A stretch of DNA of 64,000 bases from Sphyrna mokarran (GCA_024679065.1 JAGIQG010000013.1:33108001-33172000), one strand, 5' to 3'. Counted from the stretch's first letter, positions 2,530-60,520 are shown. The notes: generated by a model not told the origin, from the letters alone. Translations and numbers: made by a program.

Positions 2530-2726
2530 CTGCAGGTGTCTATTCCAACATTTTTCAGTAAGACACTGTAACTATAAGTGAAACCCTCTTGCAGGACACC
2601 AAAATTCACTTTTGCTGGAAACAACTCAAAGCCTCGTGTTGGTTTCGTGAATATACCACTTGCTATGGGACCAGCAACAGATGCTGTATTGACTTTTCTT
2701 CTGACTGGCTCTTCAATAATGGCAAA
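2530..2726 (-). CDS. SPAG17: SPAG17 exon (197 nt, phase 0-2): FAIIEEPVRRKVNTASVAG...GFELFPAKVNFGVLQEGFTYSYSVLLKNVGIDTCR
   Basis: ttttttacag| acceptor, AG|gtattt donor; start of the C-terminal PapD/ASH-like domain (FGVL.EG.TY...LKNVG.D.CR). Confidence 0.95.
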
Positions 2727-6717: not shown

Positions 6718-6884
6718 CTTCTGGTTAGGTAGTACACCTGGCTTTGAGCTCAAAATAGCTGTTGGGAGCTTGACTTTCTCCTTTCTTGGCTGGTTGGCAG
6801 CATCAATTATCAGGCTTTTGTTGAATATAACATTATTTCCATCACCTGGTAGCTCTTCAGGCCTGTATTCCATCACTCCATTTC
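6718..6884 (-). CDS. SPAG17: SPAG17 exon (167 nt, phase 1-0): NGVMEYRPEELPGDGNNVIFNKSLIIDAANQPRKEKVKLPTAILSSKPGVLPNQK
   Basis: tttcacttcaacaag| acceptor (5' boundary less certain), AAG|gtaaaa donor; SL..D..GQ.RKEKVKLP...LSSKP motif. Confidence 0.9.
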
Positions 6885-9529: not shown

Positions 9530-12500
9530 GGAACCAAATTAAAAAGCAGAACCAACAAGGTGGTAATCTCTGGATTACTACTTGAACCACATGCAAATTG
9601 ACGCAGGGTCAATAGAATTACGGAGGTGAACACATGGCTCAAAGATTGGTGTGGGAGGAATGGGTTCGAATTCATGGGGCATTGGCACCAGTATTGGGGC
9701 AGATGGGACATGTTCAGATGGGATGGTCTTCGTTTGAATCGTAAAACCAAGGCTGTAGATAGAGTTATAAACTAATTGGGGGGGGGGGGGAGGTAGGGGG
9801 AATTACAAAACCTAAAGTAAAGGAGAAGGTACGAGTGCAGGTCAATATTGAGGATGTTCCACTAATTAAAGGAGTAGGGGCACGGGAGAGTTAGTAGCGT
9901 TCATACAAATCAGGTCCGGATAAAGGCTGGCATAAAGACACTTTACCTGAATGCACGAGGCATTTGAAACAAAGTGAATGAGTTGATGGCACAAATCAGC
10001 ACAAATGGGTATGATCTAGTGGCCATTATGGAAACATAGTTGCAGGGTGACCGGGACTGGGAATTGAATATCTAGGAGTATTAGACATTTAGGAAGAATA
10101 GACAGAAAGAAAAAGGAGGTGGGGTAGCTCTGTTAATAAAGGATAATATCAGGGCAGTAGTAAGAGAAGATATAGGTTCCAAAGAGCAAAACGTGGAATC
10201 GTTGCGGGTGGAGATAAGAAATAGTAAGGGGAGAAAGTCATTGGTGGGTGTGGTCTATAGGCCTCCAAATAATAACTTTGAAGTGGGGCGGGCTATAAAC
10301 AAGCAAATAATTGATGCATGCAAAAACGGAAACGAGATAATTATGGGGGATTTTAACCTGCATATTGATTGGTTGACTCAAGTCAGATGCAGTGGGTTTG
10401 AGGAAGAATTCTTGGAATGCTGTTGGGATAGTTTGCTTGAACAGTATGTAATGGAACCTACGAGGGAGTGAGTTATCTTAGATTTGGTATTGTGTAATGA
10501 GGCAGGTAGAATTAGGGATCTTCTCGTGAGATATCCTCTTGGGAGGAGTGATCAAATATGGTTGAATTTCTGATGCAAATGGAGGGTGAGAAAGTAGGGT
10601 CCCGAACCAGTGTCCTCTGCTTGAACAGAGGGGAGTATGATAATATAAGGGCGGAATTGGCTAATGTAGATTGGGAGCACAGATTGGTTGGTAGGACAGC
10701 TGAAGAACAGTAGAGGATTTTAAGGAGATCTTTTTCAGTACTCAGCAGGAATATATTCCGGTGATAAAGAAGGACTATAAGAAAAGGGATAACCAGCCGT
10801 GGATATCGAAGGAAATGAAGGAGAGTATTAAATTAAAAACCAATGTGTACAGAGCTGCTAAAAACAGTGGAGAATTAGAAGATTGGGAAAGATTTAAAAA
10901 ACATCAAAGAATGACTAAGAAAGTGATAATGAAAGGAAAGATAGAGTATGAAACTAAACTAACTCTAAATATAAAAAATGACAGTAAAAGTTTTTATAAA
11001 TGTATAAAGAGACTTGCTAGAATGAATGTTGGACCCTTGAATAACATGAGGGGGGTATTTAATGGTGGGAAACAAGGAAATGGCTGAGGCTTTAAATAAG
11101 TTTTTTGTGTCGGTCTTCACAAATAACGGAGGACACAAATAGCTTATCAAATATTAAAGATAGAGGATTGGTAGGAGATGAGGTCCTCAATACAACTACT
11201 GTTATTAGAGAGGTAGTGCTTGATAGACTAATGGGACTGAACATAGACAAGTCCCTGGGACTGGATGGAATGCATCCCAGGTTTCTGAAAGAAATGGCAG
11301 AAGTAATAGCAGGTGCGTTATTAATTATTTATCAAAATTCACTGGACTCTGGGGAAATGCCAATGGATTGGAAAACGGCTACTATTACATCGCTGTTTAA
11401 AAAAGGTAGCAGACAAAAGCCGGTTAGCTTAATGTCTGTAGTTGGAAAAATTGTAGAATCCATCATTAAAGAAGAAATCGCAGGGCATCTAGAAAAGAAC
11501 TGTTTGATCAAACAGACGCAGCACAGATTTGTGAAGGGGGAGTCGTATTTAACAAATTTACTGGATTTTTATGAAGATGTGACTAGTGCGGTAGACAGAG
11601 GGGAACCGATGGATGTGGTGTTTTTAGATTTCCAGAAGGTGTTCGATAAGGTGCCTCACAAAAGGTTGCTGTAGAAGGTTGGGGTACATGAAGTTGGGGT
11701 AAAGTGTTAGCTTTGATTGAGGACTGGCTATCTAACAGGAAGCAGAGAGTTGGAATCAATGGATGTTTTTCTGGTTGGCAGTTGGTGACTAGTGGAGTGC
11801 CGCAGGGATCGGTGCAGGGGCCTCAACTGTTTATCATATACATAGACGATCTGGAGGAGGGGGCTGAATGTAGCATAACGAAATTTGCTGATGACACAAA
11901 GATGAGTGGAAAAGTGAATTGCGGGGAGGACGCGGAAAGTCTGCAGAGAGATCTGGATAGGCTGAGTGAGTGGGCGAGGACCTGGCAGATGGAGTATAAC
12001 TTTAGTAAATGTGAAGTATCCACTTCGATAGAAATAATAATAGGAAGGAATATTATTTAAATAGTGAAAAGTTGTAGCATGCTACTATGCAGAGGGACCT
12101 GGGGGTTCTTGTGCATGAATTGCAAAAACTCAGTCAGCAGGTGATCAAGAAGGTAAATGGAATGTTGGCTTTTATCACGAGGGGGATAGAATATAAAAGC
12201 AGAGAGGTCTTGCTGCAACTGTACAAGGTACTGGTGAGGCCGCAACTGGAGTATTGTGTGCAGCTTTGATCCCCTTATTTGCGAAAGGATATATTGGCCT
12301 TGGAGGGAGTACAGAGAAGGTTCACCAGGCTGATACCGGAGATGAGGGGGTTAGCTTATGAGGAGAGATTAAATAGACTGGGCCTGTACTCGCTGGAATT
12401 TAGAAGGCTAAAGGGGGATCTTATAGAGACTTTCAAGATAATGAAAGGGCTAGATAGAGTAGAGGTAGAGAGATTCTTTCTGCTCAGAAAGGAAACCAGA

Positions 12501-12800
12501 ACGAGAGGGCACAGCCTCAAAATAAGGGGGGAGCAGTTTAGAACAGAATAGAGGAGGAACTTCTTCACTCAAAGGATGATGAATCTCTGGAATTCCCAGC
12601 CCATTGAAGTGGTGGAGGCTACCTTGTTGAATATATTTAAGTTTTATAGGAGATAGGTTTCTGATAGACAAGGGAATTAAGAGTTATGGAGAGCAAGTGG
12701 GAAAGTGGAACTGATCCACTTCAAATCAGCCATGATCTTATTGAATGGCAGGGCAGGCTGGAAGGGCTAGATAGCCTACTCCTACTTCTTTTGTTCATAT
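9530..12800 (+). mobile_element. CR1-clade LINE, nearly full ORF2 (APE endonuclease + RT) plus the ORF1 esterase end; inactivated
   Basis: ORF1 VVISGLL...WCGRNGFEFMGHW..DGLRLN; EN VGVVYRPP, IMGDFN; [29 protein letters not shown]; several stops and frameshifts. Confidence 0.95.
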
Positions 12801-13121: not shown

Positions 13122-13241
13122 TTGATCCAATATCTTTCAAGACTTCAACAGGAATGGAAAATGGCTTGTGCAACAAACAACAACTGTGTCTCTTCTGAGA
13201 TAACGGATCTTGCTCATCAGCTCCTTCTAGAAGGGGATTAG
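13122..13241 (-). CDS. SPAG17: SPAG17 linker exon (120 nt, phase 1-1): NPLLEGADEQDPLSQKRHSCCLLHKPFSIPVEVLKDIGS
   Basis: ttaaattgcag| acceptor, A|gtgagt donor; open frame; symmetric phase. Confidence 0.78.
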
Positions 13242-15020: not shown

Positions 15021-15861
15021 TTTTTGAAAGAGTTCACAACTTTTGGTATGTACATCCTGTGAGCTGTTACGGTCTCCAAGAAACAGCTTTCTGGTGTTCT
15101 TCTTTGAGACATTGGTCCAATAGAGTCATAGAGTAATAGAGCACGGAAATAGGGCCTCTGGCCCAACCCAATCATGCCGACCATGATGCCCTCCCAGGTA
15201 TTCCCAATTGCCTTTGTTTGGTCCTTACTGCTGCTCCACATTTTTCTTAAAACTACTTCTACATGCAGAAGAAAATATCAGTAATAAAATCAATGATGAT
15301 GAGAGTAAGATTTCCAAAGCTGAGAAGGCATTAAGCAGCTTCGGATAACTGACATGCAGGTTGAAATTTCCCTCACAAAACAAAATGTATAAATAAAATG
15401 TCATAATGAGTTGCAATTCAGTTCCCCTATTTTCACTTCAGTACATCTCTCAGTTTTACTGGAGGGTTTACCATGTGCAGTGTTCCTGCAATTTAGAGTA
15501 AACATCATATTATGGCATTAATTGGGTTGTGACATTTAATTTGTGTCCCTGCCTGCTTGTGAAAATAAAATATAGACTGTAGAAATGTAAGCTTAAGAAG
15601 TAAAATAATTAAGAAACATAAGTTGAAGATAAAGAAAGAATGCATAACAAAAAAAATTGTGAGAGTTGAATCAAAAATGAAAAAGAAGAAAATGAGGAAC
15701 AAATAGAGTGGCAATGAGAAACATGCAGGATGAATTGGAAAGTAGAAAACAAGGTCAGAAACAAATACAAGGAGAGACAACTTTTTGATTTTTTTCTGTG
15801 GGCAATGTCATAAAGTATTAACTGCCACTAATAATCTAATAAATCAATTCCAGTCTCTTAC

Positions 15862-15981
15862 TTTCAGAATGCTGACACTGAGGAGTCGTTGTCTGTGGCA
15901 GTTGAACATCATGTATTGGACAAGTTATCTTTGCCTCTGCTTCATAAGTACAGGTTGGGTTAAAGAGTCTGTTACAAGCAT
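15862..15981 (-). CDS. SPAG17: SPAG17 linker exon (120 nt, phase 1-1): DACNRLFNPTCTYEAEAKITCPIHDVQLPQTTTPQCQHSE
   Basis: tgtttgtcattag| acceptor, A|gtaaga donor; open frame; divergent member of the duplicated exon family. Confidence 0.8.
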
Positions 15982-16159
15982 CTAATGACAAACAGACACA
16001 GAAGTTTAAATGAAAATCTGAAAAAACGTACAAAGTGGCACACACAGTTAATCTATATCTGTAAACGGAATTCAATATGTCTAGATCAGAAATACCGATG
16101 GGTGACCGAATTAGCACATAGGAGAGGTTTTAACATCACTGTGACATAGAAAGAGGGCC

Positions 16160-16480
16160 TTTAGATAGGGTGGACAATGATAGCCTTTTTCCTCGGATGG
16201 AGAAAGCTAGCACGAGGGGACGTAACTTTAAATTAAGGGGTGGTAGTTATAGGACGGATGTCAGAGGCAGGTTCTTTACCCAGAGGGTGGTAAGGGTATA
16301 GAATGCCCTGCCTGCTGCAGTTATAGATGCACCAAGTTTGGGGGCGTTTAAGAGGTCAGTGGATAGGTTTAGGGATGAAAAGGGAATGGTTTAGGTTAGA
16401 GGGTCATTGCTTTTTCTTAATTGGTCGGCGCAACATCGAGGGCCGAAGGGCCTGTTCTGCGCTGTAATGTTCTATGTTCT
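16160..16480 (+). mobile_element. CR1/HER1 LINE 3' fragment
   Basis: Reverse-complement match to 21233-21555; (tgttcta)n tail. Confidence 0.88.
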
Positions 16481-16978
16481 ACGCTCAAGTAAACCTTGAA
16501 AGGAGGTCTGGAAAATTATGCAATTACAATTGGAGAAGGTAGATATCAGGATCAGGAGGTTAGAGGTCATGAACATGAACTCGAATGAACATAGTGAAAT
16601 CCCAGCACCATCCTTTAATAAATAAATGGTTGAGACAACACAATATGATACTTCTGGCTTTAAAATATTGCGAACAATTCCACAATTTGTTTGTATACAC
16701 TTTCTATTCTTTTCTTTCTTTTAGTTCCTTGGAACATTTAATGCACAAATGCACATTAAAGTTTATATTAGCAGTTTGTTTCCATAGTTACCTCAGTGGA
16801 TTCCCATTTTCCACTAACAAGATAACATTTCAAAAGTTAAAACAGAATAAAGAAAAACCTAGTCTTTTTTGAAAGGAATGACCTGGGCTGATGTAAACAG
16901 TGTAGTGAACACTATTATTTTTATATTTTCTCGTCAACAGTATGGTAGATTCACAAATAAGTTTAACAAAAAAATTAC

Positions 16979-17104
16979 CTAGAGGGGAATATTGATATCG
17001 AGAAATCTTTGCCTGTTGTCCTGTGTTGTCTGAACTTCTGAAGTTGCATGTGTCAGTCCCTACTGCATGAGTTGGCATTTGGTGTGTTGGTGTATAGGTA
17101 TCAT
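16979..17104 (-). CDS. SPAG17: SPAG17 linker exon (126 nt, phase 1-1): DTYTPTHQMPTHAVGTDTCNFRSSDNTGQQAKISRYQYSPL
   Basis: ctttattttgtcag| acceptor, G|gtaatt donor; open frame; member of the duplicated exon family. Confidence 0.8.
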
Positions 17105-18119
17105 CTGACAAAATAAAGAAAATGATGTTTATCTGTGAGAAACGACTGTTATCACGTAAATCTATTAGTTTGCAAAAATATACTATTCTTTTAAAAAGCA
17201 AATAGTTTTGCTTATCTTTTGTTCAAAGCTACTTATCTTTGCACCAGTCTTCCAGCAGATCATATCAATAAACCCATATGATTCACACTTGCTCCATTTC
17301 TTTGTTACTTCTAGATGACCCTTTTTCTTGTTAATCTGTCATCAGGAATATCCTTTATTCATTGACTTCATTAGCATCGTGCTGTCAGGCTGTTATTGAA
17401 ATCCACATAAATGCATGAAGTTGTAGCACTTACTCTAATTCTCCACTAACTATGCAGAAATCATTAAGGCTGGTGTGTTCAGGTCAAAGTATATTTTCAG
17501 CCTTCCTAGCACTGAAAAATTAATTTTACCAGTTTAGAGTTTCATTCATTTACTGTTGAGGATATAACCAAAATAATGATTTATTAAACTTTTTCTGTTA
17601 CTGTTATTTCTTGTTGGTCACCCCGTCTTTCTTTCTCATTTTTCATATTTTCTTTTCTATATATGATTTAAATCTGGTTTATTCTTCCTGATTTGTACTT
17701 CCTAGTTAGATTCAATAGGGCTAAGTTCAGTAGATGTTGAAAATGAGCACAGGGGTTATGATGATCAATTGACCAGTATTCATTCACTACAAGTTGCAAG
17801 CAAACTTTATGCTGTTGCCTGTTTTAAATGATTACAGATTTTAGCCAGTAGTATGAGCCTTATTGATTGGACGTGATTCGAGCAGGTGGCCATATTGTGA
17901 CTAGCTAGACCGAATAAAGCTAAAACAAACTGCTTAATGATAACCTGCAGCTTTTAAAGGGTGGCCCACTGTGTTTGGAACAGATGCTGACAGTTGTACA
18001 GGAACTGAAATAAAAAAAGGAAATGCCACAATTTCTGTTTTATATGAGATTTCTAGCATTTGCAGCGTTATGCTTTTGCACAAAATTAATTAGCCTGTGA
18101 ATTATTGAAAAAAGACACA

Positions 18120-18335
18120 ACATGAGAGTGGATTGTGATGCTACGCTTGAGGCCTTGGTAGAGAAGGTACAAAATAGGAGGTGGCTTTTTTCAGCAAGGG
18201 GAAAGGAAGCCCTCCAGTGGCATACTCAGGAGGCAATGGGAGCAATAGTCAAGGATGTCAATGTCAGAAGTCAAGAGCTGAGGACCTGGATGTAGTGTTG
18301 CAGGAAGTCCAATGATCTTACAAGTGGTCAAGATC
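18120..18335 (+). mobile_element. PIF/Harbinger Myb/SANT-like ORF remnant
   Basis: Degenerate D.TLEALVEKV..RR...QWEQ..V...RTWM.C..K.NDLT peptide. Confidence 0.6.
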
Positions 18336-18579
18336 AATATTTGCATCTTCAAATGCCATATCTTACCATATGTGAAACTAACCTCAGACATTGCTCATCA
18401 CATCCATCAATCTCTTGAAAGCAGCCGGGACCTGCCATTTATATTCTTTACCATACACTCATTGTTGAAAATCTAACATCTACATTTCACATAGCTTGCA
18501 CACAGTGAGGGTGATCTCAAGTACACTCCTGTCATTTACAGGAATGGTAGTGGGGCTCAAGATCCAGAAGTTGCAGATC

Positions 18580-19003
18580 TTAGAAGATCTTATGAGGAAA
18601 GGCTGAGGGGCTTGAGGTTATTTTCATTAGAGAGAAGAAGGTTAAGAGGTGACCTAATTGAGGCATACAAGATGATCAGAGGGTTAGATAGAGTGGACAG
18701 TGAGACCCTTTTTCCTTGGATGGTAATGGCTAACATGAGGGGACATAGATTTAAATTAAGAGGTGGTAGTTATAGGACAGACGTCAGAGGTAGGCTCTTC
18801 ACTCAGAGGGTAGTAAGGGCGTGGAATGCCCTGCCTGCAGCAGTTGTGGACTTGCCACCTTTAAGGGCGTTCAAATGGTCAGTGGATAAGCATATGGATA
18901 ACATTGGAATAGTTTAGGTTAGAGAGTCATTAGATTGGTTCCACTGGTTGGCGCAACATTGAGGGCCAAAGGGCCTATACTGTGCTGTAATGTTCTATGT
19001 TCT
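18580..19003 (+). mobile_element. CR1/HER1 LINE 3' fragment
   Basis: [30 protein letters not shown]...; (tgttcta)n tail. Confidence 0.9.
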
Positions 19004-19799
19004 AGATCTCACTTTTGTGGTAGGGGGAAAGGGAGAAGGGGCTGGTGATTGCAGGGAGCGGGAGGGAAGGCTGATAATTGGGGGTGGGAAGAAGCTGATG
19101 ATCGGGGGGAGGTGCATGCTGGCCTGACTGAGCTGAGGGAGCCCTAGAGTCCTCCATGGTGGGCTGGAAGAGATTTATTGCTGTTCTGATCAGACTATCC
19201 TCTAAAGATGCGATTCAATCTTAGCACAATCGGGCTTTGCCAGTGGGCTCAGGCCCTCTTGCATGATGGCATGAAACACAGCCCCCTGACTTTCTTTGAC
19301 TGTGTGTTGTAAGACCTGGAGAGAAAACTCACCTGTTTCTTTGGATAGAGACATGCTGGTTTTCTCACTGGAACCAATACACTACCATTTTTTGCCCGTT
19401 GTGGGCTATTCATCCATAACAGCCAGATCGCCTAAACAGATCGCATAACTTCACTGGCACACTTGTCTCTTTCTGGCATCATAAAGTCATACATAATCAA
19501 GATAGTCACAGCTAGCTGGGCAAACAGGCGACCTACATTGTTAATGCATGGAACAGAAGCAGACTTATACTTTTGGGGCCCCATACTTTGCCCCTGTGCT
19601 GGCCCCACCACGGCAACACACCCTGCCCAACCAGTTACATGGTGCATTGCCCCAGGTGATATCAAGCCTTGTCCACCAGTGATGTCATGTCCCATGCCAA
19701 ATACATCAAACCCTCACCTAATGATTTCAAACCCCATCCTCAAATGGCATCATTTCCCTCCTGACCTTGCCTAATCTCAGCTTATATGATACAAGCCAC

Positions 19800-20105
19800 T
19801 AAAGTACAGAAAAGTACACAAATTACTGCTTTGGTGTTTTCTAATTTACAAAAAACAAACCTGTAAATGATGAAGTCAAATCCACAATGTCATAGAAACC
19901 AAAAAAGTAAAAGTACACAAATCACTGCTCACTGCTTCGGCGTTTAGTAATTGATGAAAACAAGCCTGTAATTGCTAAACTCAAATTCAAAACTACAGTG
20001 CAAGCTGCAAAAATACACAAAAAATATACAAATGCCACATCACTCTTAACTGTTTTAGTGCTTTTTAACTGATGAAAACAAGCCTGTAATTAATCAATTG
20101 CAATC
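19800..20105. repeat. Degenerate tandem repeat, ~3 units of ~100-120 bp
   Basis: Recurrent aaagtacacaaat..ctgct...aaaacaa(a/g)cctgtaa blocks at ~19810, ~19910 and ~20010. Confidence 0.65.
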
Positions 20106-20887
20106 CAAGCTTGCTTGTTGTCAGCATGGTGGTACAGATGGCCAATGTCGTGATTTACGTGTCTAGAGGTGAGCAAACATGGAACTGGCCAATGGATAAT
20201 GAGATGGAGAAATCAGCCGATGATATGACTGTAGCACATGACAGGCCAGTGTAGAACGGCAGAAGTCAGAAAAAGTCCAGTGCAGGAGCAAATGCTACAG
20301 TCAAGTTGAATCCAGTCAGTCCAAGTCCAATATAAGTGGCTTAGCTGGCAACTATTTGGCAGAATTCTGTTCTTTGTCCAGAACAGACATTCTGAAGGCC
20401 AATACTGAGAGCAATGGGGACTGGTGGTTACACACCGGTTATAACTGTCTGCATGTGACATCCATGATATCAGACTAGCAAATGGTAGTCCTGTTTGAAA
20501 AACAGAATTTAAACAGTGGGAGATGGAAGGGGAACATATTTTTAAGATTGTCTTGCTTCACCAGTTGTTTGCAATCCATGGCAATTTAGACAGCTTTTCT
20601 TCTGCACTTTTTCTTCACACAATCATTGATAATATCATCATAAGTAAAATCATGAAAGGATTTTCAATTGTCAGTATTGCTGATCTTGTCAAATGTGCCT
20701 GACTCATCATACCTCACAGATTATTTTTAACTCTTTTTCAGAGTTTTTTCAGAGAAAGAATGCTGACTGGAAGCATTTGTGTATTAAGCATTAAGGCACA
20801 TAATTATTGATGAAAATATGAAGAAGAGATATATGTGTTCTCATCAACAGTATGATAGGTTCTCAAATAAATGATTAAATATGTTAC

Positions 20888-21013
20888 CTTCTATGGAATG
20901 TTGGTACTGAGAAGTTACTGTCTGTTGTATTGGATTGTCTGATCTTTTGAGGTTGCACACGTCTGTCCATGTTGCATAAGCTTGCACTGGACCTATTGAT
21001 ACGTTGTTAATAT
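20888..21013 (-). pseudogene. Duplicated SPAG17 exon (126 nt, frame open) with acceptor AG->AC; may be used as a 105-nt exon 20888-20992
   Basis: tttttgtcac| replaces tttgtcag|; intact G|gtaaca donor; peptide INNVSIGPVQAYATWTDVCNLKRSDNPIQQTVTSQYQHSIE is colinear with exon 16979-17104. Confidence 0.75.
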
Positions 21014-21232
21014 GTGACAAAAATAAAAATTGTTAGTGACATTTATCTGAGAAGAGACTGCTGTTAACTTGTAAATATAAACTGTTTTTTATGAAGTAAA
21101 TTATTTACTTATCCTTTATTCAAAGTTATTCATCTTTGTATCACAATTTTAGCAGATCATATGTATCAACATGAGTGATTCATGTGTGCCTGTAATTTTG
21201 CTGCTGCCTCAGGGTTTATACTTTTTTTTATT

Positions 21233-22878
21233 AGAACATAGAACATAGAACATTACAGCGCAGAAAAGGCCCTTCGGCCTTCGATGTTGCGCCGACCATT
21301 ATAAAAAGCAATGACCCTCCAAACTAAACCATTCCCTTCTCTTCCATAAACTTATCAACTAACCTCTTAAACGCCACCAAACTTGGCGCATCTACAACTG
21401 CCGCAGGCAGGGCATTCCACTCCCTAACCACCCTCTGGGTAAAGAACCTACCTCTGATATCCGTCCTATAACTATCACCCCTTAATTTAAAGCTGTGTCC
21501 CCTCGTGCTAGCTTTCTCCATCCTAGGAAAAAGGCTATCACTGTCCACCCTATCTAAACCTCTAATCATCTTATATGTTTCAATAAGGTCTCTCTTAGCC
21601 GCCTTCTTTCTAACGAAAACAACCTCAAATCCCTCAGCCTCTCTTCATAAGACCTGCCCTCCATACCAGGCAACATCCTGGTAAACCTCCTCTGTACCCT
21701 CTCCAATGCCTCCACATCTTTCTTATAATGTGGGGACCAGAACTGCACACAATACTCCAAGTGCGGCCGCACTAGAGTTTTGTACAGTTGCAACATGACG
21801 TTGCGGCTCCGAAATTCAATCCCCCACCAATAAAAGCTAAGACTCCATATGCCTTCTTAACAACCTTCTCGACTTGACTGCCTACTTTCAGGGATCTATG
21901 CACATACACACCAAGATCCCTCTGTTCATCAAGACTACTAAGAATCCTACCATTAGCCCTATACTCTACACATTTATTATTCCTGCCATAGTGCATTACC
22001 TCACACTTTTCCACATTAAACTCCATTTGCCACCTCTCGGCCCAGCTCTGCAACTTGTCCAAGTCTCTCTGCAAACTATAACACCCCTCTTCACTATCTA
22101 CCACTCCACGACTTTAGTGTCATCTGCAAATTTACTAATCCATCCTTCAATACCCTCATCCAGATCATTTATAAAAATTACAAACAGCAGGGGCCCCAAA
22201 ACAGACCCCTGAGGTACACCACTTGTAACCGAACTCCACGATGAATATCTCCCATCAACCACCACCCTCTGTCTTCTATCTGCTAGCCAATTCCTAAACC
22301 AATTAGCTAAATCACCCTCAATCCCATACATCTGCATTTTCTGCAGAAGCCTTCCATGGGCCACCTTATCAAACGCCTTACTAAAGTCCAATATACCACA
22401 TCAACCGCCTTACCCCCATCCACCTCTTTGGTCACTTTTTCAAAAAACTCAATAAGGTTAGTAAGGCACGACCTACCCTTCACAAAACCATGCTGACTAT
22501 CCCCAATCAATTCATTTCTCTCTAAATAACTATAAATCCTATCCCTAATAATTCTCTCCAATACTTTGCCCACAATAGAAGTAAGACTCACTGGCCCATA
22601 ATTCCCTGGAAGGTCTCTCTTCCCCTTCTTGAACAATGGGACCACATTCGCTATCCTCCAGTCTTCCGGAACCATACCCGTAACCAACGACGACCTGAAG
22701 ATCAGAGCCAGAGGCTCTGCAATCGCCTCTCTTGCCTCCCAGAGAATCCTAGGGTAAATCCTGTCCGGCCCAGGGGACTTATCCAACTTCAACCCTCAAG
22801 AATATCTAGCACATCCTCCCTATCTACTTCGACACTTTCCAGTTTGCAACCCTGTACCTCAGTGTTCTCCACAAGTAC
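21233..22878 (-). mobile_element. 5'-truncated, relatively young CR1/HER1 LINE (RT domain to 3' tail)
   Basis: Overlapping ORFs KSPGPD..., [30 protein letters not shown] broken mainly by frameshifts; (catagaa)n tail. Confidence 0.95.
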
Positions 22879-23199
22879 ATTAACTCTCTGTCAGAAGCAC
22901 TCTTTATTCATTGACTTTAATCTTTGATTATTTTTACTGCTAGCTGCTTTTTGTATCAAAATATTTCTGTTTTATCCAAATGTGACCATTATTCCTCATG
23001 CTATTTATTTCTTTCAGATGTTTTTATAAGTGTGGGCTGGGAGACTCTGCTCCTGTTGCATTGGTCAGATTTGGAGACGGGAGCAAAAATATCACAAGAA
23101 GTGCAAAGTCATAGATTACATCAATGTGAAAGCATGACATGATTGTTCCTCTCCCCTCATCAGCATTGGGGCACTTTTCCTAATGTTCAAAGCTGGGAG

Positions 23200-23400
23200 C
23201 ATCATTGTAATAAATGAGCATATTATCAGGCACATACTCCAGAAGCCTTTCCCCCACATCAAAAAAATCCAGCTGTGGTGGTGTGAAACACAACTGGTCT
23301 TCAAAAAGTGTTCAACTGGCATGCAGTATTCCCAGATAAGCTCAAGTGATGCAGCACTTGGGGAAAGTGGGTCATACACAGGTAGTGTATCTGTGGCTAT
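23200..23400 (+). mobile_element. Possible Harbinger transposase (HARBI1-like) remnant
   Basis: Highly degenerate trace of the 'SINVQLVCD...FPGS.HDA' region. Confidence 0.35.
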
Positions 23401-23907
23401 TTGCCCGTTCCTAATTTTTCATTTATGCATAGATATAATTAGATTTTTGACTTTGCATCTATTTGGTGGCAAAAATGGATGGTAACATTATGAGAATGTT
23501 TGGGATTCCCAGATGCTCTTGGGAAGTCACACCCAAGCAGCTCAAAAGGTTTGGGAAACCCTATATTAAATGATTAAATTTATGACTTTTTAACCTGATG
23601 CTCATTTCAAGTAACTTACATGTTTAAATTTGACTGAACATTTTACTGCTCATTTCTACCTGACTTTTTAATGTTTCTGTTTAAATTTCTAACTTGTTAA
23701 CATGATTCTAATCAAATTTATGATTTAAAAAATCTTCACATACTTCTAAAAATAACTATCACCAAAATATTTTGAAAAAAACTTTTTGTGGGGTGCCTCT
23801 TTTCTGCCCTGTCATTTTGGATTCTGTGGTTATGGCATCTCTTTACTGCACTATGCACTTGGTCCTTTATACTCACACAGAACATGGCAGATCTATGCTA
23901 GGGCCCA

Positions 23908-24040
23908 CATAGAATCGGACAGTGCAGAAGGAGGCTATTTGGCTCATTGAGTCTGCACTGACCACAATCTCACCCAGGCCCTATCCCCATAACTGAGTTA
24001 GTCCCTCTGACACTAAGGGTCAATTTAGCATGAGCCTGCA
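23908..24040 (-). mobile_element. HE1-like SINE 3' fragment
   Basis: Matches the tail part of 42888-43198. Confidence 0.7.
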
Positions 24041-24949
24041 CATCGCTGATGAAATAATCTGCCTTCCCAGTGAGATTTTTGGTAGGAGATTCACATTAAG
24101 TGGTTGTACTTTACCAGCCCCCCGGGATGGATTTGGAGGTGGGACAGCCTGTAAAATGGAAAAGGAAGTGGGATTGAAGTGGTGGAGTGCCTGTCATCTT
24201 CCCATTGCCACAACATTTTACTAGCAGTGAGGAAGTTGGAGGATGGTCATTCCAACAAGCGGTCAACTGAGCCACTTAGGTTGCCAGTTATGGACCACTC
24301 TGTGCTGTCAAAGCATTTTACCAGTGGTGTGAATCTTTTATTGCATTGGAAGACCATCTTGTCAATCTTTGTGGTCTCCCAGCAGACCTGTGATGATGGT
24401 GAGAAGGAGAAACTTCCTACGTCATTCTTTGGCCATGGAGGGATCCCTCAAGAGGAATGGCATCCCTTGAGGCATTAGGACTATTTGCTTTCACCAAGCA
24501 CCTAGTTTGCTTGGCTGGGCCTGCCTGACTGCCAACATATGCCAAGACCCATTTTCCTGGTTGGGCAGGCAGCAACTTTCCAGGATGCCCTCTTCTTCTG
24601 ATTGTCTGGCACCTCCTATAGTCTTTTATAGGGGGTAGTAGCCCTGAAGGTAACCAGTTAGTTGCCTGACCATCAGAAAGTGCAGTTGTGGGTGCCACTG
24701 TTAGCATGGATTAATCAACCTAAGCTCTATGGCCCATCGTGGGGCACTGCCTCCTGAGAATAAAATTCAGCCCAGTAAGCGGGCACTTTAGGTCGAGGAC
24801 AATTGTCACTTTGCTGCTGACCACAAGCAAAGAAAGAATCAAGACTTAACACACATGGTTAATGGTGAAAATGTGAACAGTCAGTTGCAAAAATCTTATG
24901 CATTCTTATTAATATTGTGGATTCCCAAATAAATTATTAAACATATTAT

Positions 24950-25027
24950 CTTCTGTGGAATGCTGAGACTGAGAGATGACTGCTTGTTGTGTTGCATTTG
25001 TTCGTATTTTGAGGCTGTTACCAACAT
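24950..25027 (-). pseudogene. Duplicated SPAG17 pseudo-exon (78 nt): DVGNSLKIRTNATQQAVISQSQHSTE; donor GT mutated to AT
   Basis: Intact ttattttgttag| acceptor; GAAG|ataat where the 20888 paralogue has GAAG|gtaac; flanking intron homologous to the 17104 and 21013 copies. Confidence 0.75.
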
Positions 25028-26419
25028 CTAACAAAATAAAAAATGTTAATTAACAATGCTTTTCTGAAAGAAGAGACTGTTATACTATCTACCTGCCCAT
25101 TTACAGAGATGAGAACAGTTGCTTTCATTTTTCTCATTTTAATGTATCCAATTTAGGAATGTGGCTAGATGATGGACTTTATTGGCCCTAAGTTGTTTTG
25201 CTTTATGTCTCTGCCTCTGTCAGTGATTTTCAGGTATGAGCAGTTGGGTGGGAGGACAAGGTGTCATGATGCTCCAGGCCATGCTCATGGGGCAGATTTG
25301 ATTCAGCTGCTATTTTTCCTGTTACTTTTCCTCCCATGTTGCACAACAACTCATCCAATCGGCCATTTCCACATATATACATTTACACATCTCAAAGTGA
25401 AAACTTGAAAGTCAACTACATAGAGTGCAGGAAAGCCAAAATAAGAGACACTTTACTCCGCTGTGCTGAGTGCCATGCACACTGAAGTAACACATTATAT
25501 CAATATTTGTACTGCTTATTAAGAGAGCATGGGTCATTGCTAATGTCCTTGGCTCATTGGCAAAAGATTACAAAAGTTAAAAGAAGAAAACAGGCTGCTG
25601 AGATAACTTAATCAACTGCATTTGTTATTTTTACAAATGAGGTGCATCATTTCTTATTTTTCTGTTAGCACTCTGAAAGATTCTTTATATTAAGAGAAAA
25701 TAGTAAACTTCAATTTGTCTCCTTCTTTATTACAAAACATTATAAACGACAATTCATGGATTCTTACATTGTGGATAACTAAAGATTTTTTAATCTGTCA
25801 TTTGTTATTATTTAGTGAAAGGGAGGCATCAGGGACAGAAGAACATGGGGACTGGAGCAATATAACTCTGAATTCAGGACAGGGAGCCAATCTAAATATT
25901 GTACTGTACAGTCTACACAATTGAGGTGTGCATTCACAAACTCTACCTAGATAAAATATCGATTTCTTTTTAAGTGTCATGGTAGTTTCACTTCAACCTC
26001 TTGAGACATTTTCAGCATTTCCCTGCGACTAAGTACTCTTTGGAATAAAGCTGCTCAACTGTAATTTTACATAAGAATTATAGGGTTTCATTATACCTCA
26101 TGAGGTCATGGGTCAAAGCAGTTCTGCTCCTTTGGTTACTGTAAAGTTTTATACCATTTACCTGTATCTGTATCAGGGGAAGCTGAAGCCAAATGATCAA
26201 ATGTGTCTTGCCCTTTCATCTTTTGGCTTGTTGGAAATGGCTTTGATAAACAATCCAGATCAAGCTCCTGTACAAAACAAATTTTTATAATCTAAGCTTT
26301 GTACTTTGTTCAGCTTTGTCACTGGAATTTGCAAATTGGAATGCTATTTTAAGTATATTGAGAATGCATGGAAAATCGAGGAATGCGCCTTCTATTTGAA
26401 GAATTTCCCCATTTTAAAT

Positions 26420-32614: not shown

Positions 32615-32711
32615 CTTTCTTCGTTTACGTTAATCCATTTGCAGGGAGCTACCTCTGAAGTGATCTTGAAAGTGGATCCCAAAGCATCCTCATAAATTAA
32701 GGCTACATCAA
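32615..32711 (-). CDS. SPAG17: SPAG17 exon (97 nt, phase 1-2): VDVALIYEDALGSTFKITSEVAPCKWINVNEER
   Basis: tttgttacag| acceptor, AG|gtatgg donor; phase-compatible on both sides. Confidence 0.85.
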
Positions 32712-47057: not shown

Positions 47058-48820
47058 TCGTCCATCATTGGAGGCAGGGAAGATCCCAAAGAACTGGAAA
47101 GTAACTAATGTAACAGCGCTGTTTAAGAAGGGAGGGAGACAGCAGATGGCAAATTATTAGCAGGTTAGCCTAACATCGGTCATTGGAAAGATTTTAGAGT
47201 CCATCATTAAAGATATGATTGCAGAGTACTTGGAAGTGTATGATAAAGTAGGACTGAGTCAGCATGGCTTTGTCAAGGGAAGGTCAAGGGAATAGTGGAT
47301 TCTCGGAGGCTATTTCCCAGGGCTGAAATGGTCGCTACGAGAGGACACAGGTTTAAATGGGGCAAGTACAGAGAAGATGTTAGAGGTAAGTTTTTCACTC
47401 AGAGGGTGGTGAGTGAATGGAATCAGCTGCCATCAGTGGTGGTAGAGGCAAACTTGCTGGGGTCTTTTAAGAGGCTCCTGGATGAGTACATGAGATTTAA
47501 TAGGATTGGGAGTTACAGATAGTTCAATGGCCTGGTAGGTACTGATATGATCGGCACAACTTGTGGGCCAAAGGGCCTGTTTGTGCTGTAGTGTTCTATG
47601 TTCTAAATCTGTTAGAGTTCTTTGAGGAGATAACAGGGAAGTTAGATAAAGGAGAACCAAAGGACATGACTTATTTAGATTTCCAAAAGACCTTTGACAA
47701 GGTACCGCATAGGAGACTGTTAAATTAGCTGAGCCCCCATGGTATTAAGAGTAAGATCCTAGCATGGGTAGAGGATTGGCTGACTGGCAGAAGGCAGAGT
47801 GTGGGGATAAAGGTTTTTTTTAGAATAGCAGCTGGTGACTAATGGTGTGCCTCAGGAGTCGGTGCTGGGACCACAACTTTTCATAATATACATTAATGAT
47901 TTGGAAGAAGGCACTGTTGCTAACTTTGCAGATAATACAAAGATATGTAGATGGACAGGTAGTATTGAGGAAGCAGGGGGCTGCAGAAGGACTTGGACAG
48001 GTTAGGAGACTGGGCAAAGAACTGGCAGATGGAATACAATGTGGAAAAGTATGAGGTATTGCACTTTGAAAGGAGGAATGGAGGAACAGACTATTTTCTA
48101 AGTGAGAAAATGCTTAGGAAGTTAGAAGCACAAAGCGACTTGTGAGTCCTTGTTCAAGATGCTCTTAAGGTTAATGTACAAGTTCAGTCAGCAGTTAAAA
48201 AGACAAATGCAACGTTAGCATTCATGTCGATAGGGCTAGAACACAAGAGCACGGACGTACTTCCAAAGCCCTGGTTGGACCTATTTGGAGTATGGTGAGC
48301 AGTTTTGGGCCCCATATCTAAGGAAGAACGTGCTGCCCTTGGAAAGGATCCAGACGAGGTTCACAAGAATGATCCATGGAATGAAAAGCTTGTCGTATAA
48401 AGAACGATTGAGGACTTTAGGTCTGCACTCGTTGATGAGGGGGAATCTTATTGAAACTTACAGGATACTGTGAGGCCCAGATAGAGTGGACAAGGAGACA
48501 GTGTTTCCACAAGTAGAAAAAACTAGAACCAGAGGGCAGAACACAGACTAAAGGAATGATCCTTCAAAACAGAGATGAGGAATTTCTTCAGCCAGAGAAT
48601 GGTAAATCTGTAGAATTCTTTGCTGCAGAAGGCTGTGGAGGCCCAGTCATTGAGTGTCTTTAAGACAGAGGTAGATAGGTTCTTAATTAATAAGAGAATC
48701 AGGGGTTATGGGAGAAAGGCAGGAGAATGGGGTTGAGAAAAATATCAGCCAGGACTGAATGACAGAGCAGACTCAATGGACTGAGCAACCTAATTCTGCT
48801 CCTATGTTTAATGGTCTTAA
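47058..48820 (+). mobile_element. CR1 LINE RT-to-3' fragment, inserted in an opposite-strand LINE tail (46840-47057 and 48821-49230)
   Basis: [36 protein letters not shown] remnants; tail ctaattctgctcctatg. Confidence 0.9.
47287..47604 (+). mobile_element. Short CR1/HER1 3' fragment nested in the larger CR1
   Basis: Splits the host motif GFVKGRS|(CLT)NLLEFFE; has its own (tgttcta)n tail. Confidence 0.85.
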
Positions 48821-56990: not shown

Positions 56991-58734
56991 CTATATTGCA
57001 AATTGATAGTTTATTAAAAGCATTTGCATCCCTATTCCATTTTTCCACACTTTGAACATGACAGTTGACATAATTCTGCCTTTCAGTTGCCTAAACTTGA
57101 AATATTAAGAATGTGAGAAATACATGATTGCAAGAAGTTACAATAAATAGAGCTTGCATTTAGCTTTTCTTAATTGAGAAATAGCTTACATAGTAGCAGG
57201 AATAAAGTTAAAGCAGATAGTAGGAATGAAACTGTACACTAAATAAAATGGTCAATGGTTTGATTTGTGCAATAGACAAGGAATAAATTAACGCAACTCT
57301 CAAGATCATGTGTGCCTTTGCCAGCCAAAACCATGTTTTGTTGTCACATAACAGAATGAAAGCTTTGATCAGATTATACTGAAGCCTATTAGTGTTCTAC
57401 TATTAGTCATTTCTCTTTCTTATTGTAGTGTTAACTTATAGCTTTTGCAGGGGGCTTAAAGGAATGCTAAAGCAACACTAGGCTACTGACTGAGGAATGA
57501 CACTGCAACAATGATCAGTTTCAGAATAAAATAATGAGTTTCAATTAAAGACTGCAATTAAATCATTACATATTTAGGTTAGCTATTGCTAGCGATAGGT
57601 TAGCAAAGGTTTTGGAAATATACATACTCTGAAGGTTGCAGGTGGATAACATTAGTGAAGCAAGAGAAAAGCAAAAAGAAGGGTCAATACTTGAACTGGT
57701 TTATTAATAAAGAAAATCTAAGAATAAGGACAGAAGAAGCAAGGACTCTGAACAGTAATGAAAAGAATGAAAAATGATGAAGTAGCAAGATGAGATGCCA
57801 GTGGGAGCACAGACCTGCTTCAGTGAATATAGGGTACAATAATTCTTTTGCAGTGCAGTGGGTCGGGAAACTCCAGTGGAGGCCATTTCATGGGTTCCCT
57901 GCTGGGTTCCATGGTTTGCGTGTGTCTCCGGCAGCCGGATTTCCAGCGCCATAGAACTGCAAGGAGTGGGGGATAATCAGTGAGAGAAGCGGAGGAAATC
58001 AGGAGATTGAGTTTGTGGGAGGGTGGAGTGGGGTTAAGGTTGGCCTGGGCATATTCAGGGGGCCAACAACTGGAGGACGGGGGGACGGGTAAGGGTGTTG
58101 CATCACTAGCAATGTGGGGATAGCAGGGCTGGCCACCAATCAAGAAGCTGGCAGGTAGGGATCACTGTGCATGCGCAGATTCAACGCTGATAGATCGACG
58201 CATGCACAGTGGCCCGCTCATAGCTTTTTAGAGTCACTCCAGTTTTCACGCAAATTCGACATTTAGAATTTTTTTGGAAGAATCTTCGCTATAGTGTCCA
58301 TTGTGTTCTGATAAGGTGCTCTTTTGGAGAGTTGGTGAAGACACAATGGGAATGGCTCCTTTTTTGTTATACAGATTCCATAGATCTTATGGAGAGTTAC
58401 GTGATAGAAATGTATTGCTGAAACTGCAAGGAAGTATCTACAAGGCAATTATGAGACTGACCTTATATAATGTACAAACTTGGACAACATCAAGAAAAGA
58501 GGAAAATGACTAGTAGGAGGTGATTCTCCCAAAAGTGTTGAATTGGCGGGAAAACTGTTCTAAGTTGCAATTGTTCTGACAGTTCAGTCTCTCACCCGAA
58601 TTTCCGCAGTCTGTGCACTGAAGAGGTCTAAGTCATGAATCCCATTAGAATCCTTGAGGAGAGGGGATCTATTCACACCAGAGTTTGATAGTTCTAGAAC
58701 TCTGAGCATGCATCATGGCTCGAAACTGTTAAAC

Positions 58735-60520
58735 TCCCATTTACCTTTTGCCATCTAGAAAAAACATTTATCCCAACTCTCCACCTTCTGTCCATCAGCC
58801 AGTTACCTATCCAAGCTAATAAATTTACTCCTAATCCCATGTGGTCTGACCTTGTGAAAAATCTTTTTATGCGGCATCTTATCAAATACCTTCTGGAAGT
58901 CCAGATATACTACATCTACAGGACCTCCATTATCCAATTTACTTGTCAGGTCTTTGAAGAATTCTAGCAAATTAGTCAAACATGATTTGTCTTTTATAAA
59001 ACCATGCTGATCTGATGGATAGTGTTTTGACTTTGTCATAGTCACAGTCATAGAGTCATTGAGGTTTATAGCATGGAAACAGTCCTTCAACCCAACTTGT
59101 CCATGCTGCCCTTTTTTTTAAACCCCTAAGCTAATCCCAATTGCCCGCATTTGGCCCATATTCCTCTATATCCATGTAACTATCTAAATGCTTTTTAAAA
59201 GATAAAATTGTACCCTACCTCTACTACTACCTTTGGCAGCTTGTTCCAGATACTCACCACCCTCTATGTGAAAAAAATTGCTCATCTGGACATTTTTGTA
59301 TCTCTCCCTATCACCTTAAACTGATATCCTGTAGTTTTAGACTCCCCTATCTTTGGGAAAAGATATTGACTATCTAGCTGATCTGTGCCCCTCATTATTT
59401 TGTAGACTTCAGCTTCTTATGCTCCAGAGAAAAAAGTCCCTGTCTATCAAGCCACTCCTTATAACTCAATCCATCAAGTCCTGGTAGCATCCTAGAAAAT
59501 TTTTCTGCACTCTTTCTAGTTTAATAATCATCTGCAAACTTACTAACCATGCTTTCTATATTCTCATCCAAATCATTAATATAAATGATAAATAACAGTG
59601 GACTCAGCACTGATTCCTGAGGCACACCACTGGTCACAGGCCTCCAGTTTGAAAAACAATTCTCTACAACCACTCTCTGGCTTCTGTCAAGAAGCAATTT
59701 TATATCCATTTAGATACTTCACCCTGGATCCTGTGGGATTTAACCTTATGCAATAACCTACCATGGGTACCTTATCAAAGGCCTTGCTAAATTCAGTGAA
59801 GACAACATCAACTGCATTCCCTCATCTACCTTCTTGATTACACCTTCAAAAAAAACTTAAATCAAATTTGTAAGATATGATTTTCACTCACAAAATCATG
59901 CTGACCGTCCCTAATCAGTAATTGCTTTTCTAAATGACTGTCGATCCTGTCTCTCAAAATACCTTTGAACAATTTACCCACCACACATGTGAGGCTCACT
60001 GGCTTTTCCCTGCAGTCTTTTTTAAACAAAGGCACAACATTTGCCACTCTCCAATCTTCAGACACCTCACCCGTGACTATCGATGATTCAAATATCTCAG
60101 CTAGGAGACCTGCAATTTCCTCCCTAGCCTCCCACAATGTCCTGACTTTCCAAATGTCCTGATGTTGTTCCCTTGATAATTGCTTCTAACACTTTCCCAA
60201 CAACAGATGTCAAACTAACTAGTCTGTAATTTCCTACTTTTTGCCTCCCTTCCTTTTTGAATAAATAATTAGCATTTTTCCAATCCATTGGAAGGGAATT
60301 TTGGAACATTTTAACCAATGAATCTACAATCTCTGCCGCCACATCCTTTAATACCTTAGGACGTAGGCCATCGGGGCCATGGAATTTCTCTGCCTCAATC
60401 CCAATAGTTTGCTGACTGCATACCTTTTGCATAGCGATGTTGATTGTTCTAAGTTTTATCCTTTCTATTATCTCTGATTTGCCTGTAAGAATGATACTAA
60501 TGTCTTCCATTGTGAAAACT
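58735..60520 (-). mobile_element. CR1 RT fragment (58735-59034 and 60143-60520) with a second CR1 (~59040-60142) nested inside it
   Basis: RT peptides on both sides join across the insert; tgacttt repeated at 59028-59034 and 60143-60149. Confidence 0.88.

Follow-up and report, generated by a model that had tools for sequence, protein, structure and literature searches.

A stretch of 64,000 nucleotides (nt) from the shark Sphyrna mokarran (GCA_024679065.1, JAGIQG010000013.1:33108001-33172000; here called the window, with positions counted from its first letter) carries part of a gene that, judged by similarity and exon order, is the orthologue of SPAG17. In the portion that encodes the C-terminal linker it holds four exons, u1 to u4 by position and u4, u3, u2, u1 in the transcript (Table 1), which form a genuine tandem array of duplicated symmetric exons. 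We consider it likely, with good confidence, that this array is elasmobranch-wide and that it has the following history. The ancestral linker contained a segment of about 42 amino acids (aa) with two RPxNPTP motifs 18-19 aa apart, and the phase 1-1 exon bearing this segment would have been duplicated in early sharks and rays and split into two types, A and B. Copies of the A type were then gained, lost and homogenised lineage by lineage, as seen at the protein level, unequal crossing-over being the likely means. Selection seems to act on the frame and barely on the residues, and the product is most likely a flexible spacer that determines how far the PapD-like domain can extend from the SPAG17 body within the C1a projection, so that length would matter and sequence would not. 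In this genome u1 and u2 are normal exons, and u3, too, is most likely used.

All four units lie on the minus strand at the coordinates that a sequence-only reading of this DNA had given, and the four peptides it quoted for a shared C-terminal motif are correct. The units have lengths that are multiples of three (120, 126, 126 and 78 nt for u1 to u4), begin with AT and are free of stops in the phase 1-1 frame. The similarity between units that the sequence-only reading claimed is significant: in comparisons with 1000 shuffles, the scores for the exon DNA of u2-u3 (z 14) and u3-u4 (z 10.6) were never reached, the remaining pairs gave z 5.0 for u1-u4 (0 shuffles), 4.8 for u1-u3 (3), 2.9 for u2-u4 (10) and 2.1 for u1-u2 (40), and 16 pairings of units with control-exon DNA all stayed at z 1.4 or below. 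When the window was scanned with a DNA profile built from u2-u4, u1 came up at E 4e-4, and neither DNA nor protein profile revealed a fifth copy there. The exon that follows the array was tried as a fifth unit and rejected, as it shows no DNA similarity and no profile match; a single protein score against u4 (z 5, 3/2000 shuffles) was not reproduced against the other units. Tandem Repeats Finder, run on the window, did not detect the array, and none of the four units matched in Pfam.

Homology among u2, u3 and u4 continues into the introns, where some 230 nt are shared on the upstream side of the units and 60-115 nt on the downstream side. With 500 shuffles per comparison, the upstream flanks gave z 17 for u2-u3 (0/500) and z 4.4 for u3-u4 (1/500), the downstream flanks z 11.9 for u3-u4 and z 7.7 for u2-u3 (0/500 each), and clear homology of the u1 flanks to those of other units was not detected (best z 2.7). 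This shared intron sequence supports genomic tandem duplication as the origin of the copies and rules out retroposition as their source, in agreement with the sequence-only reading. Two of its details held in part. Flanking homology extends to all three units named, but the piece at 22880-22920, which matches at 31 of 35 nt where homology should resume past a fragment of a long interspersed nuclear element (LINE), has on its own a score that 52 of 500 shuffles reach. The proposed spacing of about 4 kb fits two of the three intervals (4014 and 3909 nt) but not the third (1123 nt), and a duplication unit of 4 kb is itself not shown, because the shared intron is short and one interval is padded by the LINE fragment.

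The assignment to SPAG17, also made by the sequence-only reading, is borne out by two lines of evidence. Mouse SPAG17 (PDB 9ijj chain x) is the only PDB match, and the exons of the window are collinear with full-length SPAG17 homologues including those of Mobula and Mustelus, with a mean identity of 83% to Mustelus asterias, the closest, and of 71% to Cetorhinus. These identities place the window most likely in a carcharhiniform shark. The frame runs consistently from the exon that precedes the array (phase 0 to 1) through the units, the following exon (1 to 1) and the one that closes the linker (1 to 0) to an exon of the PapD-like domain. This last exon scores 16.5 bits against PF14874 (cut-off 27); the rest of the domain lies beyond the window, and PF14874 is present in named SPAG17 relatives. 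A profile of the four units did not match the mouse 9ijj chain at E up to 10 and gave one chance match in PDB (E 1.5); exon 32617-32709 had no match in PDB, the lungfish linker found there only an unrelated designed repeat protein, a search of Rfam gave no matches, and the best value for u2 in the ESM Atlas (0.78) was below the level taken as a lead. In mouse, SPAG17 and DPY30 form the heads of the C1a and C1e projections, as stated in the part of PMC12297659 available, and several SPAG17 isoforms exist according to the accessible text of PMC7648611.

We further studied the distribution of the unit in a homologue set consisting of the best 120 of 136 matches, from which three unnamed proteins were left out; it comprises 12 elasmobranch and 105 other named proteins, the latter with many bird and turtle isoforms, two mammals and two chimaera models that skip the linker. 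With a profile seeded by 13 units from four of the 12 elasmobranch species and a threshold of 10 bits, at least one unit was found in all 12 elasmobranch proteins and in none of the 105 others, the best of which reached 8.5 bits. Cut by eye, the count is two in Scyliorhinus, three each in Cetorhinus, Heptranchias, Chiloscyllium, Stegostoma, Hypanus and Mustelus, four in Mobula and Narcine, five in Pristiophorus, six in Heterodontus and seven in Rhinoraja. Counted in this way in proteins, copy number thus varies from two to seven, and of the lineage-specific birth and death of exons that had been proposed, the variation among lineages stands, but the array itself is elasmobranch-wide.

In a tree of the units, whose deep branches are poorly supported, u1 falls into a B clade with units of 8 of the 12 species, including the ray Narcine (ultrafast bootstrap, UFBoot, 100). 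Of the A-type units, u3 pairs with Mustelus unit 2 (UFBoot 99) and u2 with Mustelus unit 3 (UFBoot 100), and u4 has a 16-aa deletion in common with Mustelus unit 1. On these grounds the split between the u1 type and the u2/u3/u4 type is placed before that of sharks and rays. Young clades of units within one species occur in Heterodontus (97) and in Pristiophorus, Narcine and Rhinoraja (100 each), and one pair of copies in Narcine as well as one in Pristiophorus is identical at 42 of 42 residues. Note that the Narcine model is without the exon that follows the array, and that the B unit of Heptranchias is preceded by four extra residues. A single cysteine (DTC-like) is retained in most units of the A type; those of the B type have two or three, and a CC pair occurs in the exon after the array. 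All of these are possible sites for disulphides or lipidation.

As to the origin of the unit, RPxNPTP motifs, in most cases two or three and about 18-19 aa apart, are present in the same linker of 11 of the 105 named non-elasmobranch proteins, from a coral, two hemichordates and ray-finned fishes and from no amniote. In the form RPxNPTPxHA there are one to three per linker in coral, hemichordates, bowfin and paddlefish; among the named linkers this form was not found in amniotes or lungfish. A two-motif profile built only from six homologues of non-elasmobranch type (three fishes and three unnamed) ranks u2 first, u3 second and u1 sixth among 29,208 stop-free six-frame positions of the window. 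In the reverse test on 14 non-elasmobranch proteins, the elasmobranch unit profile rose above zero in three, in each case on the motif (bowfin 8.5, coral 6.4 and paddlefish 0.8 bits), and nowhere outside it. Residual motifs persist in units of Heptranchias (RPxYPTPAHAT) and Pristiophorus (RPxFPTAAHAT). On the most plausible reading, the unit is an ancestral segment with two RPxNPTP motifs that was duplicated and has decayed, and the term exon birth does not hold, as motif profiles and unit tree point to a copy of this segment and to no newly born sequence. In the outgroups the segment was presumably a single exon, since a D or G residue stands where the split codon would fall. The array exposes a short motif pair, RPxNPTPxHA, that is retained in coral, hemichordates and ray-finned fishes and is a candidate binding site; we know of no function for it.

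The linker measures 214-403 aa in the 12 elasmobranchs, as against a median of 113 aa in the 101 of the 105 other proteins that have a usable anchor. For the window its length would be 213 aa if only u2 and u1 are counted, 248 aa if a short u3 is included as well and 281 aa if every unit contributes, and Scyliorhinus with its two units has 214 aa. Unit counts and linker lengths across the named proteins thus bear out the proposal that the turnover of copies alters the length of the linker. The statement that the mammalian segment is much shorter holds for the two named mammals, gundi and Tasmanian devil (120 and 122 aa), but not for mouse, where a hand count gives about 199 aa compared with the 213 aa obtained here with two units. 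This mouse linker (about 1942-2142 of 9ijj chain x) is some 80 aa longer than those of gundi and Tasmanian devil, which suggests a separate expansion at the same place. In sharks and rays, the array amounts to a natural series of lengths for a single linker in a protein of the central pair. The sperm of these animals have helically reinforced flagella, as described in the available part of PMC11856307, and a link between the two is a matter of speculation.

Between u2 and u3 there is no gap in 126 exon columns, compared with eight in 268 intron columns (Poisson P 0.023), and the single gap in u4 has 48 nt. The copies are 64-72% identical in exons and 70-76% in introns, and the ratio of non-synonymous to synonymous substitution rates (dN/dS) among copies, a check that the sequence-only reading had put forward, came to 1.3, 0.59 and 0.65 over 25-41 codons, so that neither measure revealed purifying selection on the residues of the units. 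In an AlphaFold2 model of the Cetorhinus C-terminus (alignment of 25 sequences), the predicted local distance difference test (pLDDT) stays below 50 over residues 35-260, no fold being predicted for the repeats, and a confident beta-sandwich, the PapD-like domain, appears past about residue 325. With a frame that is kept and residues that are loose, the product is most likely a disordered spacer, and the unit probably encodes a disordered linker in which the reading frame is conserved and the residues are not.

A number of points weigh against the history proposed here. The comparative evidence consists of predicted proteins throughout, and the Mustelus model is partly unreliable, with three segments absent from all 11 other elasmobranchs and without u1 as well as an exon present in all 11. 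The identical copies in Pristiophorus and Narcine may be artefacts of assembly or gene model, and since neither chimaera model includes the linker, dating of the array with respect to holocephalans is not possible. Motif and spacing were chosen after the resemblance had been noticed, and the two-motif profile performs weakly on Mobula, where the units score below zero and the top match is no unit. The dN/dS values stem from few codons only, and the low pLDDT could equally reflect a shallow, mixed alignment.

The question of which units are in use centres on u3, with AC where the acceptor AG is expected, and u4, with AT where the donor GT is expected. Both bound one and the same intron, which starts with ATAATATG and ends with TTTGTCAC, and each is one base off the paralogues; the other splice dinucleotides of the 16 mapped exons are canonical (30/32). 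Splice contexts were scored with hand-made matrices from approximate frequencies that ignore the dinucleotides themselves. On this scale the AC acceptor reaches 5.6, fourth among the 16 mapped acceptors, which span 1.0 to 7.9, and the AT donor has 4.0, in the middle of a donor range of 1.4-5.8. The donor has an exon-end AG, A at +3 and +4 and T at +5, and it matches U1 at 5 of 11 positions, compared with 6-10 for the 15 other donors; the in-frame AT register three nt further has +5G and +6T but no exon-end AG. Ahead of the AC lie a polypyrimidine tract and a U2-type branch point candidate with its A at -20, and only one other of the 16 acceptors has a site with one mismatch, at -44. A U12-type intron was rejected, as the donor has four mismatches to RTATCCTTT including the CC at +5/+6, and the best branch site has three to TTCCTTRAY and is no better than at other SPAG17 acceptors. 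An upstream CAG at 21046 was discarded as acceptor for u3, since it introduces an in-frame stop, and so were GT donors for u4, the only in-frame one lying 6 nt into the exon and read-through meeting a stop 13 codons on.

The likeliest state, to which we give about half of our belief, is that u3 is entered at an in-frame TAG 21 nt downstream of the AC and that u4 was silenced recently by a G-to-A change in its donor. In the Mustelus protein, the orthologue of u4, at its ancestral end, joins that of u3 exactly at this position, equivalent to 20992. Mustelus would hence have a canonical donor and no ancestral AG, and this suggests that the acceptor changed first and the donor later, an order read from a protein model that is itself partly unreliable. 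A comparison for faster decay in the first seven codons of u3 gave 2/7 as against 23/34 (Fisher P 0.09). It speaks against the use of this TAG that its context scores -1.1, under all 16 mapped acceptors. The sequence-only reading had counted two units as dead. Death is not shown for either u3 or u4, given the in-frame acceptor of u3 that the Mustelus model uses, and given that AT and AC are the potentially compensating ends of a single intron, a point that this reading missed. The apportioning of belief among this state and the two alternatives that follow is a judgement and was not computed.

A tentative alternative, clearly less probable, is that the intron works as a U2-type AT-AC intron made stepwise from GT-AG, with all four exons spliced and u4 and u3 coupled. 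AG would have turned into AC first, tolerated because of the in-frame TAG downstream, and GT then into AT, which re-pairs with the C, the intermediate being harmless because the exon copies are symmetric and partly redundant; the paralogues keep the GT-AG ancestral state, and Mustelus may represent the intermediate. This is compatible with the array history and differs from it only in the state of u3 and u4. That both changes hit one intron has a chance of 0.003 (two independent hits on 16 invariant bases), or of 0.016 given one acceptor loss and one hit on a splice site of u4. However, should AC have been the earlier change, the coincidence loses much of its weight: no other change destroys a donor as commonly as a G-to-A at +1, and one is to be expected whether u4 dies or the intron converts. 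The acceptor score, the mid-range donor score and the near-ideal branch point favour splicing, but the ancestral register has no +5G and a U1 match below that of all other donors. Similarly, u4 is open in spite of having no usable in-frame GT donor, and with 20/25 identities to Mustelus it is no more diverged than the canonical u2 (31/41), yet the probability that an open frame of 78 nt persists under neutrality is 0.45 at 0.1 substitutions per site. The linker of 281 aa would lie within the elasmobranch range, and none of 1563 candidate protein fragments spans the u4-u3 junction at E 0.001 or below.

What is known of such introns likewise cuts both ways. In U2 introns of yeast and human, a first-base G-to-A is rescued by a last-base G-to-C at lower efficiency, and 15 of 185,295 human U2 introns are AT-AC, a rare class that is termed a relic (all from the accessible part of PMC1557818); the geometry of the P complex accommodates an A...C pairing, as far as the available text of 10.1101/212811 goes. 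In the part of PMC2831892 available, U2 AT-AC introns are derived from U12 AT-AC introns, and a switch of the termini is said to need simultaneous mutations. The accessible literature, including PMC7367187, PMC6280755, PMC8283771, PMC10639083, PMC11347168 and 10.64898/2026.10.16.759739, gave no direct case of a U2 intron going from GT-AG to AT-AC, supplementary intron tables being outside this coverage. If spliced, the intron would be a natural case of that very switch and an origin of an AT-AC II intron that bypasses U12, with ancestral, intermediate and converted states together in one gene and a sister species and thus open to direct test. It would also be a warning that two adjacent exons that seem dead can be one non-canonical intron.

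It is unlikely, in our estimation, that u3 and u4 are both dead pseudo-exons with AT and AC as independent lesions, only u2 and u1 being spliced into a linker of 213 aa. Both units lack a complete GT-AG pair at their ancestral ends, the TAG to which u3 would have to resort is weak, the exons are no better conserved than the introns with dN/dS near 1, and Scyliorhinus offers a precedent for two units. Nevertheless u3 is open and 29/35 identical to its Mustelus orthologue, as good as the live u2, although its acceptor loss seems older than the split of the two species; at 0.15 substitutions per site, the two frames would both stay open under neutrality with a probability of about 0.17 x 0.33, and the coincidence of AT and AC (0.003-0.016) would be required. 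Finally, one or both bases could be assembly errors or rare alleles in a true GT-AG intron, a concern that also applies to AT-AC splicing since either base may be such an error or polymorphism. Each site is only a single base off its paralogues, but the ancestral acceptor of u3 is also, and independently, bypassed in the Mustelus model, and the window contains no N and is canonical at its other splice sites, so that we hold this to be very improbable.

Table 1. Positions of the repeat exons, their splice signals and neighbouring SPAG17 exons in the window, in transcript order (ORF, open reading frame).
Feature	Position	Strand	Remarks
SPAG17 exon upstream of array	26162..26267	-	phase 0 to 1; GT donor feeds array; matches Mustelus SPAG17 at 34/35 aa
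u4, A-type repeat exon, 78 nt	24950..25027	-	in-frame 48-nt deletion also in Mustelus; AG acceptor intact; donor AAG/ATAATA (slash, exon end); 20/25 aa identical to Mustelus unit 1
u4-u3 intron, 3936 nt	21014..24949	-	starts AT, ends AC; GT and AG at the paralogous positions of other units
AT donor at ancestral position	24941..24949	-	no +5G; second in-frame AT register 3 nt downstream (ATA/ATATGT; +5G, +6T)
LINE fragment in u4-u3 intron	21227..22880	-	approximate boundaries; 5'-truncated, frameshifted, reverse transcriptase remnants; Pfam RVT_1 in 3/5 ORFs, best E 9e-17; dispersed copies in window
U2-type branch point candidate CACTAAC	21032..21038	-	branch A at -20 from AC; one mismatch to TACTAAC
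u3, A-type repeat exon	20888..21013	-	126 nt from AC, 105 nt from in-frame TAG (first base 20992); GT donor intact; matches Mustelus unit 2 at 29/35 aa
u2, A-type repeat exon, 126 nt	16979..17104	-	canonical AG/GT; strongest acceptor among 16; matches Mustelus unit 3 at 31/41 aa
u1, B-type (last, diverged) repeat exon, 120 nt	15862..15981	-	canonical AG/GT; second in-frame acceptor at 16017
SPAG17 exon after array	13122..13241	-	phase 1-1; no detectable repeat unit; 31/39 aa identical to Mustelus
SPAG17 exon closing linker	6718..6884	-	phase 1 to 0; matches mouse 9ijj_x 2110-2141, E 0.039
SPAG17 exon opening PapD-like (PF14874) domain	2530..2726	-	mouse 9ijj_x 2142-2205, E 6.4e-10; PF14874 E 0.009, under curated cut-off

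Some further observations concern the same region. For u1, the in-frame acceptor 36 nt upstream is the stronger one (5.5 vs 1.0), and its use (15982-16017, minus strand) would add 12 hydrophobic residues and no stop. Between u3 and u2, positions 19933-20004 (minus strand) form an open phase 1-1 stretch of 72 nt with AG and GT within a local repeat of about 110 nt; it is 77% identical over 26 aa to a segment of the Mustelus model seen in no other elasmobranch, its acceptor scores 6.1 and its donor -0.2, and it may be a young exon or a model artefact. A second segment found only in Mustelus is 63% identical over 19 aa to 15419-15484 (minus strand), which is out of frame with poor splice scores. 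The intronic stretch 57850-57951 (plus strand) is 62% identical to Mustelus residues 509-542, which are absent from other elasmobranchs and are probably repeat sequence taken into the model. Copies of one LINE 3' end, 76-93% identical and in both orientations, lie at 436-650, 16152-16493, 18585-19004 and 21227-21655, and older LINE-like fragments near 11519-12697, 47337-48718 and 58749-60134.

With U12-type AT-AC minor introns the u4-u3 intron shares the terminal dinucleotides only. It resembles the U2-type AT-AC (AT-AC II) introns of SCN4A, SCN5A and TAF2 in its AT...AC termini, exon-end AG, +3A and +4A, polypyrimidine tract, CTAAC branch point and the lack of U12 motifs. The known AT-AC II introns are old and conserved, whereas the shark intron, a candidate for this class, is young, with its GT-AG ancestry visible in the neighbouring paralogues, and the U2 AT-AC introns of sodium channels all have +5G in the available text of PMC2831892, in contrast to the ancestral-register donor found here. 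As a protein, the product corresponds to mouse SPAG17/PF6 (9ijj chain x), a C1a projection protein, in its collinear exons, its probable PF14874 PapD-like domain and the position of the linker, but the elasmobranch linker is made of two to seven exon-encoded repeats of about 42 aa each.

Tandem duplication of symmetric exons is a known general mechanism that gives rise to protein repeats. A literature search, with subscription journals mostly outside its coverage, returned no report that joins SPAG17 with exon duplication or repeats or describes such an array in sharks, and we found no report of this case of the known process. Like tandem symmetric-exon duplications in general, the SPAG17 array has exons of the same phase, homologous flanking introns, variable copy number and young, near-identical copies. 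Unlike the usual repeats of this kind, its unit is no folded domain: it consists of two short linear motifs, now decayed, within a linker that is probably disordered.

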